Shown: positions 51,997-59,860 of the stretch, in pieces
Layout: the number at the start of each line of letters is the position of its first letter
How positions within the stretch are numbered: the first letter of the stretch is position 1
Source of the DNA: Candidatus Omnitrophota bacterium
GTDB taxonomy: Bacteria; Omnitrophota; Gorgyraeia; Gorgyraeales; Gorgyraeaceae
Reading direction: 5' to 3'
Assembly (NCBI GenBank): GCA_030649895.1
Contig: JAUSEX010000020.1
Span: 23,109 to 87,108, forward strand
Length of the DNA: 64,000 bases
Made by a program: the position numbers and the translations under genes
The notes under the pieces: generated by a model
Told to the model about the DNA's origin: nothing
The model's database searches: none
The model's input: only the letters and a program-made list of their open reading frames with translations

Positions 51997-52085
51997 GTTC
52001 TTCGGCTGCTCCTTATTCAGTCGCAGTTTTAGGATCGAAATTTTTTCAAAAATTTCAGAAATTTGAATAAAATTTTGAAGCAAGA

Positions 52086-52145
52086 AGGTCCTTCGGCAGC
52101 TAAAATGTTCGCTTCGCTCACATTTTTGACGCTGCCTCAGGATCA
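52086..52145 (+). repeat. tRNA-leader repeat (GGTCCTTCGGCAGCTAAAATG..GCTTCGCTCACATTTTTGACGCTGCCTCAGGATC), copy B, upstream of tRNA(CAU). A half-copy lies at 52015-52055.
   Basis: Shared with 59111-59170 and 59732-59790. Contains the AGCTAAAATG/CATTTT..GCT hairpin. A TTGACG hexamer lies 33 nt before the tRNA. Confidence 0.7.
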
Positions 52146-52163
52146 AATCTGCTTCGCAGATTT

Positions 52164-52240
52164 GGCGGCGTAGCTCAGCCTGGCAGAGCAGTCGGCTCAT
52201 ACCCGGCGTGTCACTGGTTCAAATCCAGTCGCCGCTACCA
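52164..52240 (+). tRNA. tRNA with CAU anticodon: elongator tRNA-Met or, after lysidinylation, tRNA-Ile2. The CCA end is encoded.
   Basis: Cloverleaf: acceptor GGCGGCG/CGCCGCU, D-arm GCUC-AGCCUGGCAG-AGC, anticodon stem GUCGG/CCGGC with loop CUCAUAC, T-arm GGUUCAAAUCC. Lacks the three consecutive G-C pairs of initiator tRNA. Confidence 0.85.
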
Positions 52241-52383
52241 ATTTTGCCGAAGGCAAAATTGATCCCGAGAAAACGACGAATAGGAATTTTCGAGGGACCT
52301 GCCGAAGGTAAAATTCGTCCCTAGCAAACCTGATTTTTAATTTGGCTGCGAGGGGCAGGTGTTATACAAATTGCAAATATATT

Positions 52384-53391
52384 ATGCCTACCACTTTTCT
52401 GGACAAAATCAAAGCTACCATAAAAAAACATAATATGCTTCAGAAGCACGATAGGATTTTGGTCGGCGTTTCAGGAGGCCCTGATTCGGTTACCCTGCTG
52501 CATATCTTGTGCGAATTAAGAAAAGAATATTCATTAAATATTACTATCGCTCATCTTGATCACAAATTCAGAGGAGATGAATCCGAAGGCGACAGGAGAT
52601 TTTGCGAAGGCCTTGCGAAAAAATATAATATAGAGATTGTCTGGGAAGAAATAGACGTGCCGAAGATTTCAAAAGAAAAAGGCCTTTCTCCGGAAGAAAC
52701 CGCGAGGTTTGAGAGGTATGATTTTTTTAAAAGGATAGCTTTAGAAAAAGGTATAGATAAGATAGCGGTTGGGCATACAAGAGATGACCAGGCCGAGACA
52801 GTGCTCATGAGAATCATGCGAGGTACTGGAATGAAAGGCCTGGGAGGCATGAGCCCGGTAAAAGAAATCTCCGGTAATAAGATAATAAGGCCTTTAATCG
52901 AGGTATCCAGAAAAGATGTGGAAGATTTTATTTCGGAATCCGGGCTTAAATTCAGAACAGACTCCTCGAACGAGAAAGCCATTTTTACAAGAAATAAGAT
53001 CAGGATGGAGCTGATCCCTTTGCTGGAAAAAGATTTTAATCCGAACATCAAGGAGGTTCTCGGCAACATGGCGGAGAACCTGCAGATTGAAAATGATTTT
53101 TTGAGCAGGTACGCAAAGAGAAAATTTAAAAGCGTGTCTAAAATCAGGCAAGGGCAGATCCTGATAGACAGCAAAAAATTTAAAAAACTCCCGGAAGCGC
53201 TAAGAAAAAGAGTTTTAAGGGTTGGCCTGGAAGAACTTAAAGGTGATTTAAGAAGGCTTACATATCAGCACTGGAAGGAGATGGAAGAATTGATCGATGC
53301 CAGGCCCGTAAATTCGATCGTAGATCTTCCGGCTGGAATAAGTATCATAAAAGATAGGGCAAATATTATTTTAAAATTAATAAAAAGTTGA
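52384..53391 (+). CDS. tilS: tRNA(Ile)-lysidine synthetase
   Basis: ILVGVSGGPDSVTLLH PP-loop, DH..RG.ES.GD motif. Conserved tilS-ftsH linkage. The track ORF begins 14 codons upstream; ATG 52384 preferred. Confidence 0.85.
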   Translation: MPTTFLDKIKATIKKHNMLQKHDRILVGVSGGPDSVTLLHILCELRKEYSLNITIAHLDHKFRGDESEGDRRFCEGLAKKYNIEIVWEEIDVPKISKEKGLSPEETARFERYDFFKRIALEKGIDKIAVGHTRDDQAETVLMRIMRGTGMKGLGGMSPVKEISGNKIIRPLIEVSRKDVEDFISESGLKFRTDSSNEKAIFTRNKIRMELIPLLEKDFNPNIKEVLGNMAENLQIENDFLSRYAKRKFKSVSKIRQGQILIDSKKFKKLPEALRKRVLRVGLEELKGDLRRLTYQHWKEMEELIDARPVNSIVDLPAGISIIKDRANIILKLIKS

Positions 53392-53439
53392 TTTATCTTA
53401 GTAAACTGTGCTAATATATTTATCTAATATAGGAGATAT

Positions 53440-55293
53440 ATGAAAATCGAGAAAAAAGGCGGAAATAAAATCAATACAAATATTCTGTTTTGGATAGGGT
53501 TATTTTTACTTCTTATCTATATCTTCAGGCTGGATTCTCTCCCTCCGGCCTCGCTTCCAAAAGAGCTTAGTTACGGCGAGTTTTACAGGCTTCTCGGGGG
53601 AAATAAGCAAACGGCAGCCATCAAGTCTGTTGTAAAAGTGGAAGATGAGCTCAAGGGTGTTCTTTCCAGCGGGGCGCATTTTACCGTGCATATGCCTCAG
53701 GAAGATTCTGAAATTTTAAGTTTGCTTAGAAACAATGTGTCTGATTTTGACGTCAAACCTCCGAAGACTCTTTGGGTAAACATTTTTTATTCTCTCGGGC
53801 CCATGCTTTTATTTATCGGGTTTTTATGGTTTTTTGTATACAGGGGCAGCCAGGGTGGCGGCAAGATACTTTCATTCGGCAAAAGCCGCGCAAAACAGAT
53901 ATCAGGCGATAAATTAAAGATAACGTTTGATAATGTTGCGGGAGTTGACGAGGCAAAGGAAGAACTGAAAGAGATTATAGAATTTTTAAAAGACCCTAAA
54001 AGATTTCAGAAATTAGGCGGCAAGATACCAAAAGGCGTATTGCTCATGGGGCCTCCCGGCACAGGAAAAACGCTTTTAGCAAAGGCAGTGAGCGGCGAGG
54101 CAGGCGTGCCGTTTTTTAGCATAAGCGGCTCGGACTTCGTGGAAATGTTTGTGGGGGTAGGGGCTTCCAGAGTAAGAGATCTTTTTGAGCAGGCCAAGCG
54201 CTCCGCAAAAATGAGCGGCAAAGGATGTATTATTTTTATTGACGAGATAGACGCTGTAGGAAGGCAGAGGTTTGCCGGAATTGGCGGAGGGCACGACGAA
54301 CGGGAACAGACGCTAAACGCGCTTCTTGTAGAGATGGACGGTTTTGATACTCAAGAAGGCGTTATTTTGATAGCGGCGACAAACAGGCCGGATGTTTTGG
54401 ACCCGGCGCTATTGAGGCCTGGGAGATTTGACAGGACGATAGTTATCTCCAGGCCTGACATTATAGGTAGAGAAGCGATATTGAAAGTTCATGCAAAGGG
54501 CATCAAGCTTAGTAAAGACGCTGATCTTAAATATATAGCAAGGCAGACATCAGGCTTTTCAGGAGCGGACCTTGCTAATCTTGTGAACGAGGCCGCTCTT
54601 TTGGCTGCGCGAAGGAACAAAGAGACCGTAGAAATGAAAGAGCTGGGGGAGTCTATTGAAAGAGTTATTGCAGGCCCTGAGAGGAAAACCAGGGTTATAA
54701 ACGCGGAAGAAAAAAAGATAGTTTCATATCATGAATCAGGGCATGCGCTTTTAGCGCTTCTTATACCAGGGGCTGACCCTTTACATAAAGTTTCGATCAT
54801 ACCAAGAGGAATTGCGCTTGGTTATACCATGAGATTGCCTTTGGAAGACAGGTACATTGTTACTAAAAAAGAACTGTTGGGAAGGATAGTAGGGATATTA
54901 GGGGGCAGGGCGAGCGAAGATCTTGTGTTCGGAGAACTTTCAACAGGCGCTCAGGATGACCTGGAAAAGGCGACTGATATCGCAAGGGATATGGTGATGA
55001 GGTGGGGCATGAGCGAGAAAATGGGGCATCTCACATTCGGAAGAAGGGAAGAGCAGATATTTCTCGGGAGAGATATTGCTGAAGAAAGAAATTACAGCGA
55101 GGCAACAGCTGTGGAAATAGATAAAGAGATACGTAAGATTATAGAAGAGTGCTACCAGAGAGCGAGGAATGAATTAAGCAGCAATGCCGATAAACTAAAA
55201 ACCCTTGCTGAGACATTGCTTGAAAAAGAAGTTTTGGATTCAGAGGAAGTGAGAAAGATAGCTTTCCCGGAGAATCCAGAGAATCAGGCATGA
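53440..55293 (+). CDS. ftsH: ATP-dependent zinc metalloprotease FtsH
   Basis: Two N-terminal TM helices, AAA+ ([13 protein letters not shown], second region of homology), HEAGH zinc site written HESGH. Confidence 0.97.
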
Positions 55294-59190: not shown

Positions 59191-59276
59191 GGGCAGATAC
59201 CCGAGTGGCCAAAGGGGTCAGACTGTAAATCTGATGGCTCGCGCCTACGAAGGTTCGAATCCTTCTCTGCCCACCA
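59191..59276 (+). tRNA. tRNA-Tyr (GUA), type II with long variable arm. The CCA end is encoded.
   Basis: Acceptor GGGCAGA/UCUGCCC, D-arm CCCGAGUGGCCAAAGGG, anticodon loop ACUGUAAAUC (GUA), long variable arm GGCUCGCGCCUAC, T-arm GAAGGUUCGAAUCCUUC. Confidence 0.9.
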
Positions 59277-59386
59277 CTGTTGTTTTAAATATTTGTGGGA
59301 CATATAAAGGATTCGAAGAGAGTCCTGATAGATGCGACTAACAGGAGCATCTGTTTATCAGGACGAGTGGCCGACCCGAAGCGAAG

Positions 59387-59407
59387 CGGAGGGCGCCGAA
59401 TCCTTCT
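59387..59407 (+). repeat. Direct repeat of the last 21 nt of tRNA-Tyr (GAATCCTTCTCTGCCCACCA plus the preceding GCGCC), an att-like duplication
   Basis: Exact match to 59256-59276, lying 110 bp downstream of the intact tRNA. Confidence 0.7.
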
Positions 59408-59487
59408 CTGCCCACCAAATCCGCTGAAAGCGGATTTGATCTTGAGATTGCGACTGAATAAGGAGCAATCGAAAGACCTTATAAATA

Positions 59488-59732
59488 TGGATTTTTGGCA
59501 TGTCTATATCATAGAATGTAAAGATAAGAAATTTTATGTAGGCATAGCCAAAGATTTAGATAATCGCATTAAATTACATAGCAAAGGGCTGGCTTGTAGG
59601 TTTACAAAATATAGGAAGTTTATTAGATTAGTTTATAAAGAAACTTATAATACCAAGTCAGAAGCAAGAAAAAGAGAATTAGAAATAAAAGGGTATAAGA
59701 GAGAGAAAAAGTTAGAGTTGGCAGGTGGATAG
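59488..59732 (+). CDS. GIY-YIG nuclease superfamily protein (COG2827 / UPF0213-like small endonuclease)
   Basis: 81-aa protein: WHVYIIECKDKKFYVGIAKDLDNRIKLHSKG...EARKRELEIKGYKREKK matches the GIY-YIG fold motifs (YIYxL..G..YVG..D...R...H) and conserved Arg/Glu. The longer track ORF (59295) runs through the tRNA-fragment repeat and is probably not translated. Confidence 0.8.
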
Positions 59733-59790
59733 GTTCTTCGGCAGCTAAAATGCTTGCTTTGCTCGCATTTTTTACGCTGTCTCAGAATCA
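59732..59790 (+). repeat. tRNA-leader repeat, copy D, followed by a pseudo-tRNA fragment instead of an intact tRNA
   Basis: GGTTCTTCGGCAGCTAAAATGCTTGCTTTGCTCGCATTTTTTACGCTGTCTCAGAATC begins at the stop codon of the GIY-YIG gene. Confidence 0.7.
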
Positions 59791-59805
59791 GTTTTGCTTC
59801 GCAAA

Positions 59806-59860
59806 GCTGGCGTAGCTCAACGGTAGAGCAATGGTTTTGTAATGTGATTTGAGCATTTTT
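59806..59860 (+). pseudogene. Degenerate tRNA 5'-half fragment (acceptor plus D-arm) similar to the tRNA(CAU) at 52164
   Basis: GCTGGCGTAGCTCAACGGTAGAGCA aligns with GGCGGCGTAGCTCAGCCTGGCAGAGCA of the upstream tRNA. No anticodon or T arms can be folded. Confidence 0.4.

Follow-up and report, generated by a model that had tools for sequence, protein, structure and literature searches.

In Enterobacteria and Pseudomonas, the repetitive extragenic palindromic (REP) sequences, bacterial interspersed mosaic elements (BIMEs) and REPINs are transcribed hairpins that influence mRNA stability, and one nuclease/transposase gene is flanked by copies. Correia elements (CREEs), stem-loops co-transcribed near gene starts, are cut by RNase III, alter expression and vary between strains. 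A hairpin processed by RNase III comprises about 20 base pairs (bp) or more of double-stranded RNA, in which internal loops are tolerated. Here we describe a structured repeat, the module, in a window of 64 kb (the whole stretch analysed, from contig JAUSEX010000020.1) of a genome from Candidatus Omnitrophota, a group that is uncultured and whose gene-expression signals are essentially unknown. The module is 60–90 nucleotides (nt) long and consists of a long irregular hairpin, a short A/U-rich hairpin and GG. It is a previously undescribed two-hairpin family across many Candidatus Omnitrophota genomes, and full-text literature searches did not find a description of it. Judged by analogy, it would work most like REP/BIME repeats or like Correia and enterobacterial repetitive intergenic consensus (ERIC) repeats, as transcribed dispersed hairpins affecting RNA fate. 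From the observed structure, distribution, exact contexts, conservation and turnover of the modules, and their bracketing of GIY-YIG genes, we tentatively read them as transcribed punctuation that serves RNA processing or stability, a cassette that recombination has spread and in which GIY-YIG genes are passengers; we judge this reading nearly as likely to be right as wrong.

Like REPs and REPINs, the module is a short imperfect palindrome, multi-copy and intergenic, often in inverted pairs, and its copies flank one nuclease gene. It differs from them in starting with AGGTCC, without a 5' GTAG, and in that no RAYT (Y1) gene is found among the genes flanked by copies, only GIY-YIG and sometimes HNH. 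REPs are species- or genus-specific and sit at gene 3' ends, whereas the module is held in sequence across lineages with about 52% protein identity and is bipartite and nucleotide-exact at tRNA ends and Shine–Dalgarno (SD) sites. With the Correia and ERIC miniature inverted-repeat transposable elements (MITEs) it shares dispersed stem-loops near gene starts whose presence varies. By contrast, it has no TA or regular target duplication and no terminal inverted repeats beyond the hairpin; it is also smaller, strictly oriented to protein genes and present in many Omnitrophota lineages rather than one genus. RNase III and RNase E signals, such as the phage T7 R sites and those of rRNA–tRNA spacers, are likewise irregular internal-loop hairpins between cistrons and near stable-RNA ends, with A/U-rich stretches flanking tRNA ends; however, the known sites do not form a mobile, multi-copy conserved family, and cleavage of the module is putative. 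What stands out as new is the spread over Omnitrophota lineages, the nucleotide-exact placement, the bipartite design and the pairing with a minimal GIY-YIG gene.

Six modules at two tRNA loci

A scan of the 64 kb with R1, a covariance model built for the module family, found six modules, all at two tRNA loci, with E-values from 1e-23 to 1e-7; a seventh match, at 42062–42147, was weak (E 0.098). The modules and the tRNA genes beside them are:

51995–52036, plus strand: module A, long hairpin, short form without stem 3 (R1 E 1.3e-7)
52037–52056, plus strand: small A/U-rich hairpin of module A, GAAATTTT-TTC-AAAATTTC
52086–52144, plus strand: module B, long hairpin, long form (R1 103 bits, E 1.4e-23)
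52145–52163, plus strand: small hairpin of module B, AAATCTGC-TTC-GCAGATTT; its last base adjoins tRNA nucleotide +1
52164–52240, plus strand: tRNA(CAU), Met according to ARAGORN; adjoins tilS
52240–52260, no strand given: small hairpin right after the CCA end, AATTTTGCC-GAA-GGCAAAATT, part of the reverse module
52261–52300, minus strand: reverse short-form module after tRNA(CAU), AGGTCCCTCGAAAATTCCTATTCGTCGTTTTCTCGGGATC (R1 E 3e-8)
52300–52329, plus strand: partial second small hairpin and module stub, direct repeat D8 of 52245–52274
59110–59170, plus strand: module C, long form, leader of tRNA-Tyr (R1 68 bits)
59191–59276, plus strand: tRNA-Tyr(GUA)
59417–59437, no strand given: small hairpin behind a duplicated CCA end, AAATCCGC-TGAA-AGCGGATTT
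59438–59479, minus strand: reverse short-form module after a copy of the tRNA-Tyr 3' end (R1 E 5.6e-10)
59731–59789, plus strand: module D, long form (R1 95 bits)
59790–59808, plus strand: small hairpin of module D, AGTTTTGC-TTC-GCAAAGCT
59806–59842, plus strand: truncated tRNA-Thr(UGU), nucleotides 1–37, ending with the anticodon loop TTTGTAA

The earlier note on this DNA had reported four copies of a hairpin-containing leader upstream of tRNA genes. These four are real and occur far beyond chance. The 5' arm, AGGTTCTTCGGCAGC, is found with up to three mismatches at 51995, 52086, 59110 and 59731; its matches in the 64 kb number 5 against 1.14 expected, a count reached by none of 100 shuffles. 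The 3' arm, GCTGCCTCAGGATC, lies at 52131, 59157 and 59776. Copies B and D are 83% identical over 82 nt, and the window copies fold individually, with z-scores against shuffles of -4.8 for B and -4.7 for D. The number of copies, their extent and the identity of a supposed pseudo-tRNA had to be corrected. The supposed half-copy at 52015 begins at 51995; it is a complete module of the short form, which has its own small hairpin and is missing only the optional stem 3, and two minus-strand copies, 52261–52300 and 59438–59479, had been missed behind a tRNA 3' end and a copy of one.

Module A, with the hairpin sequence AGGTTCTTCGGCTGC-TCCTTATTCAGTC-GCAGTTTTAGGATC, starts at the stop codon of a larE-like gene and has orthologous copies in L011, L021 and L019 (L and a number denote related loci outside the window, on metagenome-assembled genome (MAG) or metagenome contigs). 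A weak promoter-like site (52045–52073, TTCAAA-17-TAAAAT) overlaps the 3' half of its small hairpin and ends 12 nt upstream of copy B, in which stem 3 is AAAATG/CATTTT and the 3' bulge is TTGAC. In the reverse copy at 52261–52300, stem 2 is wholly replaced (GAAAAU/GUUUUC), and the G·U pair, both UC/UC loops and the UAUUC tip are retained. At the tRNA-Tyr locus, the small hairpin of module C is degenerate (59171–59190), and the module at 59438–59479 is an 80% inverted repeat of module A.

Copy D had been described as carried into the tRNA-Tyr island together with a degenerate 5' half of tRNA(CAU). The fragment shows no likeness to that half: it is nucleotides 1–37 of tRNA-Thr(UGU), the first three of which are also the final 3 nt of the module D small hairpin. 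The gene is intact with the same leader in L015 and L095, and in L094 the truncation is identical and is followed by similar island sequence. Copy D is thus a normal tRNA-Thr(UGU) leader, its gene having been cut after nucleotide 37 at a junction shared with L094. These observations bear on the idea of a tRNA leader restricted to one genome, copied to a few tRNA loci and in one case carried into the island by tRNA-gene recombination. Within the window the modules do occur only at two tRNA loci; however, D leads a genuine truncated tRNA whose leader is the same in L015, L095 and L094, and dozens of MAGs and metagenomes contain the family, also at protein genes, which makes this explanation barely credible.

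Structure and covariation of the module

The base of the long hairpin is near-invariant in sequence (AGGUCCU/AGGAUC), with G·U as its second pair. Above it lie a 2x2 internal loop (U·C/C·U) and then stem 2, 6 bp of free sequence. An optional part follows, a U and stem 3 (AAAAUGC/GCAUUU) with the 3' bulge UUNAC, and the hairpin ends in the tip UC-(G)C-UAUUC-G(C)-UC, the closing strand reading ...UC-AGGAUC. The short hairpin is A/U-rich, with 8–9 bp and a loop of UUC, UUCG or UUUG, and its last U adjoins the GG. At tRNA and tmRNA genes this GG coincides with nucleotide +1, and before protein genes it opens a GGAGG ribosome-binding site; where a tRNA lies on the opposite strand, it complements the CCA end. 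The short form is the long form minus stem 3, and a pair in stem 2 that is A-U in one form is U-A in the other, a compensated change; the short and long forms contain about 13 bp and about 20 bp (6+6+6+2), respectively.

Base changes among the copies preserve this structure. In 34 long-form copies, 97.2% of cells were paired under a hand-drawn structure and 16 pairs showed double changes; the first helix of this set was fixed by the search pattern, and the informative compensations are those in stem 3 and the small hairpin. None of 500 shuffles did as well, and slid controls were 31–45% paired. Among 106 distinct copies aligned with R1, pairing holds in 97.0% of cells and double changes are seen at 25 of 28 pairs, in an alignment that was fitted to the model and is therefore biased towards the structure. 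The second pair was G·U in 101 of these copies, A-U in 5 and G-C in none. Covariation of the hairpins, previously argued from copies B and D, thus holds for the family. The second small hairpin described for these two copies is present in both (52145–52163 and 59790–59808) with a TTC(G) loop, and the two stems differ by compensatory changes that keep the pairing.

Several known kinds of element were rejected. With Rfam 15, only the two window tRNAs passed the gathering threshold and nothing matched over the modules even at E-values up to 5, and the related loci gave tRNA, tmRNA and nhaA-I matches only; these scans rule out a known RNA family in the window and related loci. A self-cleaving ribozyme was rejected on the same lack of an Rfam match and on the shape, which is that of a simple continuous hairpin. 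A pseudoknot between an upstream GGAG and the loop CUCC is geometrically implausible, with a helix of about 14 bp lying between them. The module is also not an intrinsic terminator: a T-run follows neither hairpin, and a terminator scan flags no module.

The module tip also occurs outside modules. Two minus-strand hairpins, at 61786–61808 and 61846–61868, carry an apical C-UAUUC-G loop without the AGGUCC base, as in GCGACAC-UCCUAUUCGUC-GUGUCGC. The C-UAUUC-G tip may thus be recognised independently of the rest of the module.

Modules abut tRNA ends and ribosome-binding sites in many Omnitrophota

An exact degenerate pattern matched 34 loci in species-representative genomes and 57 in metagenomes. 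All AT-rich matches with an organism title came from Candidatus Omnitrophota MAGs or from bins labelled Planctomycetia, and the GC-rich matches were false positives in coding sequence. R1 recovered 137 copies in 84 loci. The leader is thus not confined to the window sites, having been found in many Omnitrophota MAGs, which favours the finding being real. No module matched in IMG/VR viral contigs, and a phage origin was ruled out on this ground.

We took a census of the contexts of 112 non-redundant modules, in which the class 'other' was read by eye and a few rows are unsettled. Of these, 29 end on the base preceding a same-strand tRNA, and another 23, in reverse orientation, abut a tRNA CCA end. 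A GGAGG with its start codon comes immediately after at least 19 modules and, by eye, after several more in the class 'other'; the protein genes that follow include GAPDH-, EF-Tu- and DapA-like starts. One module directly precedes a tmRNA, and the remaining modules mostly precede tRNA fragments, another module or a promoter. There was no clear reversed copy beside a protein gene among the 112 modules, with the class 'other' judged by eye. In tRNA arrays the usual order is tRNA, small hairpin, reverse module, forward module, small hairpin and next tRNA, as in L015, L027, L074 and L093. The description of the modules as tRNA leaders was therefore accurate for part of the family and too narrow for the whole, which also occupies SD sites, a tmRNA start, tRNA 3' ends in reverse and the flanks of GIY-YIG genes. 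The tmRNA copy lies in L044 (1588–1824); this long-form module, whose third stem is GC-rich and whose loop is cUUCGg, adjoins an Rfam RF00023 match.

If it marks the starts of tRNAs, tmRNA and mRNAs, the module would offer a handle on RNA processing and stabilisation in Omnitrophota. As a new RNA motif absent from Rfam, it would also serve as a practical annotation marker for these genomes; the family would help to explain assembly breaks at tRNA loci and bears on how small structured repeats spread.

Module sequence is conserved, module presence is not

Several relatives keep a forward module at the tRNA(CAU) locus, which is flanked by the larE-like gene and tilS. The larE-like proteins of L011, L021 and L019 are 86%, 80% and 52% identical to that of the window (TilS of L021 is 54% identical), and the leader module is about 90% identical across the three loci. 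Conservation at this level despite 52% identity of the larE-like protein points to purifying selection or continual homogenisation.

The number and kind of copies vary at orthologous sites. The long-form copy B is extra in the window and missing from L011, L021 and L019, and presence/absence polymorphism is seen at the tRNA(CAU) locus (window, L011, L021, L034, L097 and L098) and in the EF-Tu leader. The reverse copy after tRNA-Tyr in the window is nearly identical to the copy after tRNA-Leu in L093, whereas another reverse-module variant is found at the orthologous tRNA-Tyr loci, L092 and L094. Stubs and nested copies were also found. No consistent target-site duplication appeared in the flanks of 95 copies; GGAG on both sides was seen in only a subset of the short-form copies that precede SD sites.

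L097 and L098 are 100% identical over most of their length, with a patch of 79–97% identity (about 700–1450 of L097) covering the larE 3' end and the tRNA leader module. Such a divergent patch between otherwise identical loci indicates recombinational replacement of the segment within a population.

Minimal GIY-YIG genes lie between inverted modules

The window also contains a small nuclease gene at the tRNA-Tyr locus, preceded by an insert that we call element X:

59277–59417, plus strand: element X, a 120-nt insert and a 21-nt copy of the tRNA-Tyr 3' end
59487–59732, plus strand: GIY-YIG (UPF0213-type) gene, 81 amino acids (PF01541 E 4.6e-15; structure 1zg2 E 1.3e-13)

The gene sits between two back-to-back modules. 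Copy D, described earlier as lying after it, is located there and in fact overlaps its stop codon (TAG/AGGTTC). The 81-residue protein has 21 close homologues, mostly on short contigs; the open reading frames (ORFs) as called encode 81–119 residues, and 81–89 in the loci examined. The GIY-YIG domain spans the whole protein, with no separate DNA-binding domain. In all eight loci examined (the window, L064 and L092–L097), a forward module starts on or just before the GIY-YIG stop codon, and at some loci the ORF reads into the module arm, ending in ...RSFDG and a stop. On the other side, the distance from the end of a reverse module to the GIY-YIG start is a few to about 20 bases in the window, L092, L093, L094 and L097; L095 and L096 have an HNH gene in this interval, and in L064 the upstream flank is past the contig end. 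All examined loci that show both flanks thus have the gene within back-to-back modules, an arrangement that provides a testable lead on UPF0213 function. The assembly GCA_030690035.1 has two GIY-YIG paralogues at different tRNA loci, and in different MAGs the gene is found beside tRNA-Tyr, Gly(UCC), Gly(GCC), Met and Ala. Back-to-back module pairs also occur without an ORF (L015 7232–7406, L093 1850–2039).

The HNH protein has 212 residues in L095 (1280–1918) and 135 as called in L096 (471–878), with the HNH domain at the C terminus; its best NCBIfam similarity is to the HNH region of IscB (E 1.2e-9). With this gene beside the GIY-YIG gene, the unit in L095 and L096 carries two nuclease genes.

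The closest parallel to the gene's position is the freestanding GIY-YIG gene segB in the tRNA cluster of phage T4, which likewise lies between tRNA genes, is variable in presence and position and is sometimes accompanied by HNH. The Omnitrophota protein differs in having only 81–89 residues, in being of the UPF0213 type (closest solved structure 1zg2) and in lacking a DNA-binding domain; its gene is bracketed by inverted modules and stands in a cellular context, with no IMG/VR matches.

Copies of tRNA 3' ends accompany these units. In L097 and L095 the GIY-YIG unit is followed by a second tRNA 3' end, from the T-arm GGTTCGA to CCA (25-nt repeats); in L095 the direct repeat reaches about 113 bp because the reverse module is included, and a single homologous crossover fits this repeat as well as transposition does. 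The 21-nt direct repeat of element X (59397–59417) equals 59256–59276. Element X starts with an inverted copy of the T-loop (AAGGATTCGAA) and on its minus strand has a hairpin with a module-like tip followed by GAGTGGCCGACCCGAAGCGA; it occurs twice in L093, after tRNA-Lys and tRNA-Gly, and is absent from the orthologous L092 and L094. Direct repeats of tRNA 3' ends that bound element X (21 nt) and the GIY-YIG units of L097 and L095 (25 nt) are reminiscent of tRNA-targeting islands. Unlike such islands, neither holds an integrase gene; none was seen in element X, in the GIY-YIG units or in the visible part of the island beyond 59843, and no integrase domain was detected among the 10 neighbouring window ORFs scanned.

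These units bear on the main rival to the reading that modules punctuate transcripts, namely that modules are a selfish hairpin DNA element of foldback, MITE- or REPIN-like kind mobilised by the GIY-YIG nuclease. Its unit would be a small hairpin, a reverse module, a forward module and a small hairpin, with or without a GIY-YIG gene, and sometimes an HNH gene, in the middle. The nuclease would recognise extruded or single-stranded DNA hairpins and insert the unit where a tRNA terminus or SD site offers '...GG'; the majority of copies would be non-autonomous, and their conservation would serve the element and not the host. The invariable forward module at the stop codon (eight of eight loci) and the reverse module before the start (five loci) fit this idea, as do the two paralogues in one MAG, the occurrence of the gene at Tyr, Gly, Met and Ala tRNAs across MAGs, the ORF-free pairs in L015 and L093, and the duplicated tRNA 3' fragments flanking the unit in L095 and L097. 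So do the stubs and nested copies, the variable presence at orthologous sites, the near-identical reverse copy at a different tRNA in another genome, the strand-specific features retained in copies antisense to tRNAs, and the homologues on short contigs. However, an insertion preference explains poorly why copies before SD sites are co-oriented at zero spacing, without a clear exception in at least 19 cases. A consistent target-site duplication is also missing, with GGAG flanks in a subset only, and sequence at orthologous sites is conserved at about 52% protein identity. The 81-residue protein is a catalytic domain only, most modules have no GIY-YIG gene nearby, and the direct repeat of about 113 bp in L095 fits homologous recombination equally. 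On balance we consider the selfish element somewhat unlikely. More specifically, modules and the minimal UPF0213 GIY-YIG gene might together form an undescribed class of mobile element, a bare-GIY-YIG foldback cassette that targets tRNA and tmRNA ends and ribosome-binding sites exactly and whose non-autonomous copies have become leader and trailer punctuation in Omnitrophota by domestication. We regard this as improbable; if true, it would give a first function to the widespread UPF0213 family.

A different DNA-level proposal is a single-stranded-DNA recombination site, attC-like or Xer-like, that exchanges tRNA and GIY-YIG genes as cassettes. The architecture does resemble that of integron attC sites, with a conserved basal stem, an unpaired spacer, a second stem (here stem 2, of free sequence), a variable terminus and strand-specific irregularities, and direct repeats of tRNA 3' ends flank the inserts. 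The base nevertheless reads AGGTCCT...AGGATC in place of the attC R''/R' core RYYYAAC...GTTRRRY, and no integrase was found among the scanned ORFs (10 neighbouring ones in the window). Moreover, the modules face inward around tRNAs and do not form co-oriented arrays, most do not lie beside cassettes, and the many copies before ordinary protein genes would go unexplained. We give this proposal very little credence.

Transcription, strand and the proposed RNA function

Consistent with transcription of forward copies, sigma-70-like promoters were found within 80 nt upstream of 14 of 95 modules against 6–7 expected, about a twofold excess. Three perfect TTGACA-17/18-TATAAT sites end 12–32 nt upstream of modules, and a subset of copies has sigma-70-like promoters 12–35 nt upstream; intercistronic copies leave no space for one. 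No promoter occupies a fixed position, the composition of the upstream flank being flat except for A at -1 and -2. A sigma-70 or sigma-54 promoter inside the module was rejected, since the hexamers and spacings are unfit and the short form has no TTGAC (judged by eye). The EF-Tu gene of L095 starts 22 nt downstream of a reverse module, and no promoter is evident in the gap, so this copy is probably read through in complementary form. Taken together, the covarying hairpins, their position in tRNA leaders and the upstream promoters make a reading as a processing signal or promoter-proximal element, as first suggested for the window copies, a reasonable one.

Two further relations between copies were considered and rejected: fold-back copying of the tRNA leader to the 3' side, because upstream and downstream modules differ in type and stems, and long-range pairing of leader and trailer, because stem 2 of a reverse copy mismatches the forward copy of the same locus.

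If the modules are a punctuation cassette, forward copies would be transcribed as part of a promoter-proximal or intercistronic leader. Binding or cutting of the sequence-conserved long hairpin would fall to a conserved host factor, for which an endoribonuclease active at the base of the hairpin or in the A/U-rich junction is the best candidate. The short hairpin would stay behind as a protective, insulating structure at the 5' end beside the ribosome-binding site; RNase P would remove it where a tRNA or tmRNA follows. Downstream of tRNAs, reverse copies would form the mirror-image hairpin block in the trailer. Recombination between copies would spread and homogenise the family, and UPF0213-type GIY-YIG genes, sometimes with HNH, would be selfish passengers in the joint of back-to-back modules that may assist the movement of copies. 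Strict orientation and zero spacing before ribosome-binding sites are not predicted by a pure DNA-insertion model.

Several observations weigh against this proposal. The reverse complement of the module folds equally well or slightly better than the module strand, as expected from stems that are almost purely Watson–Crick. Across the variable stems, G·U and A·C combinations number 37 and 21, and no strand is clearly favoured; an assignment of the strand by wobble pairs was abandoned, as this difference is too weak and folding energies favour neither strand. The G·U at pair 2, the UC/UC loops and the cUUCGg-type loops follow the orientation of the module even where it is antisense to a tRNA, and a pure sense-RNA function does not predict strand-specific features in antisense copies. 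With about 13 bp, the short form seems too short for a classical RNase III substrate. Individual loci can also do without the module: no leader module accompanies the promoter of L034, the full copy of L098 corresponds to no more than a remnant in the near-identical L097, and EF-Tu has a forward module in L024 and none in L095. GIY-YIG genes so strictly bracketed, and tRNA 3' fragments present in duplicate, are reminiscent of mobile elements. Finally, we infer all of the RNA-level steps, namely transcription of every copy, a cleavage or stabilising role and the identity of the factor.

The same leader position would also suit an action on transcription itself, in which the nascent RNA serves as a processive antiterminator (put-like or boxB–boxA-like) or as a pause signal in tRNA operons and before strongly expressed genes. 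Some copies are promoter-proximal, and the strongly conserved base of the hairpin would suit contact with a conserved partner, for instance RNA polymerase. In the long form, the bulge UUUAAC/UUGAC bears a loose resemblance to boxA, whose consensus is GCUCUUUAACAA; however, this is the only likeness, with no match of boxA length, and the bulge is missing in short-form copies that occupy the same contexts. Many copies are intercistronic and not at operon starts, and reverse copies would remain unexplained. We consider such a role highly unlikely.

Sequences next to the modules

The tRNA(CAU) gene (52164–52240) lies directly upstream of tilS (52385–53391), which encodes tRNA-Ile lysidine synthetase, and this synteny is retained in L011, L021 and L097. 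The tRNA(CAU) next to tilS may be tRNA-Ile2 instead of tRNA-Met.

The island that follows module D starts at 59843 inside tRNA-Thr(UGU), right after the anticodon loop, at the junction shared with L094, and extends from there to position 64000 and beyond the window end. Its genes include a HicB/HicA-like pair (60219–60843, no Pfam match), a DUF3192 lipoprotein (62220–62603) and an HNH_5-like protein (62745–63467). A non-coding segment of the island, 61172–61382, has no Rfam match and contains nested inverted repeats, with an outer pair of 20 nt that is 95% complementary and three internal hairpins; its sequence suggests a structured RNA of about 210 nt, and the region is 78% identical to L094 2988–3287.

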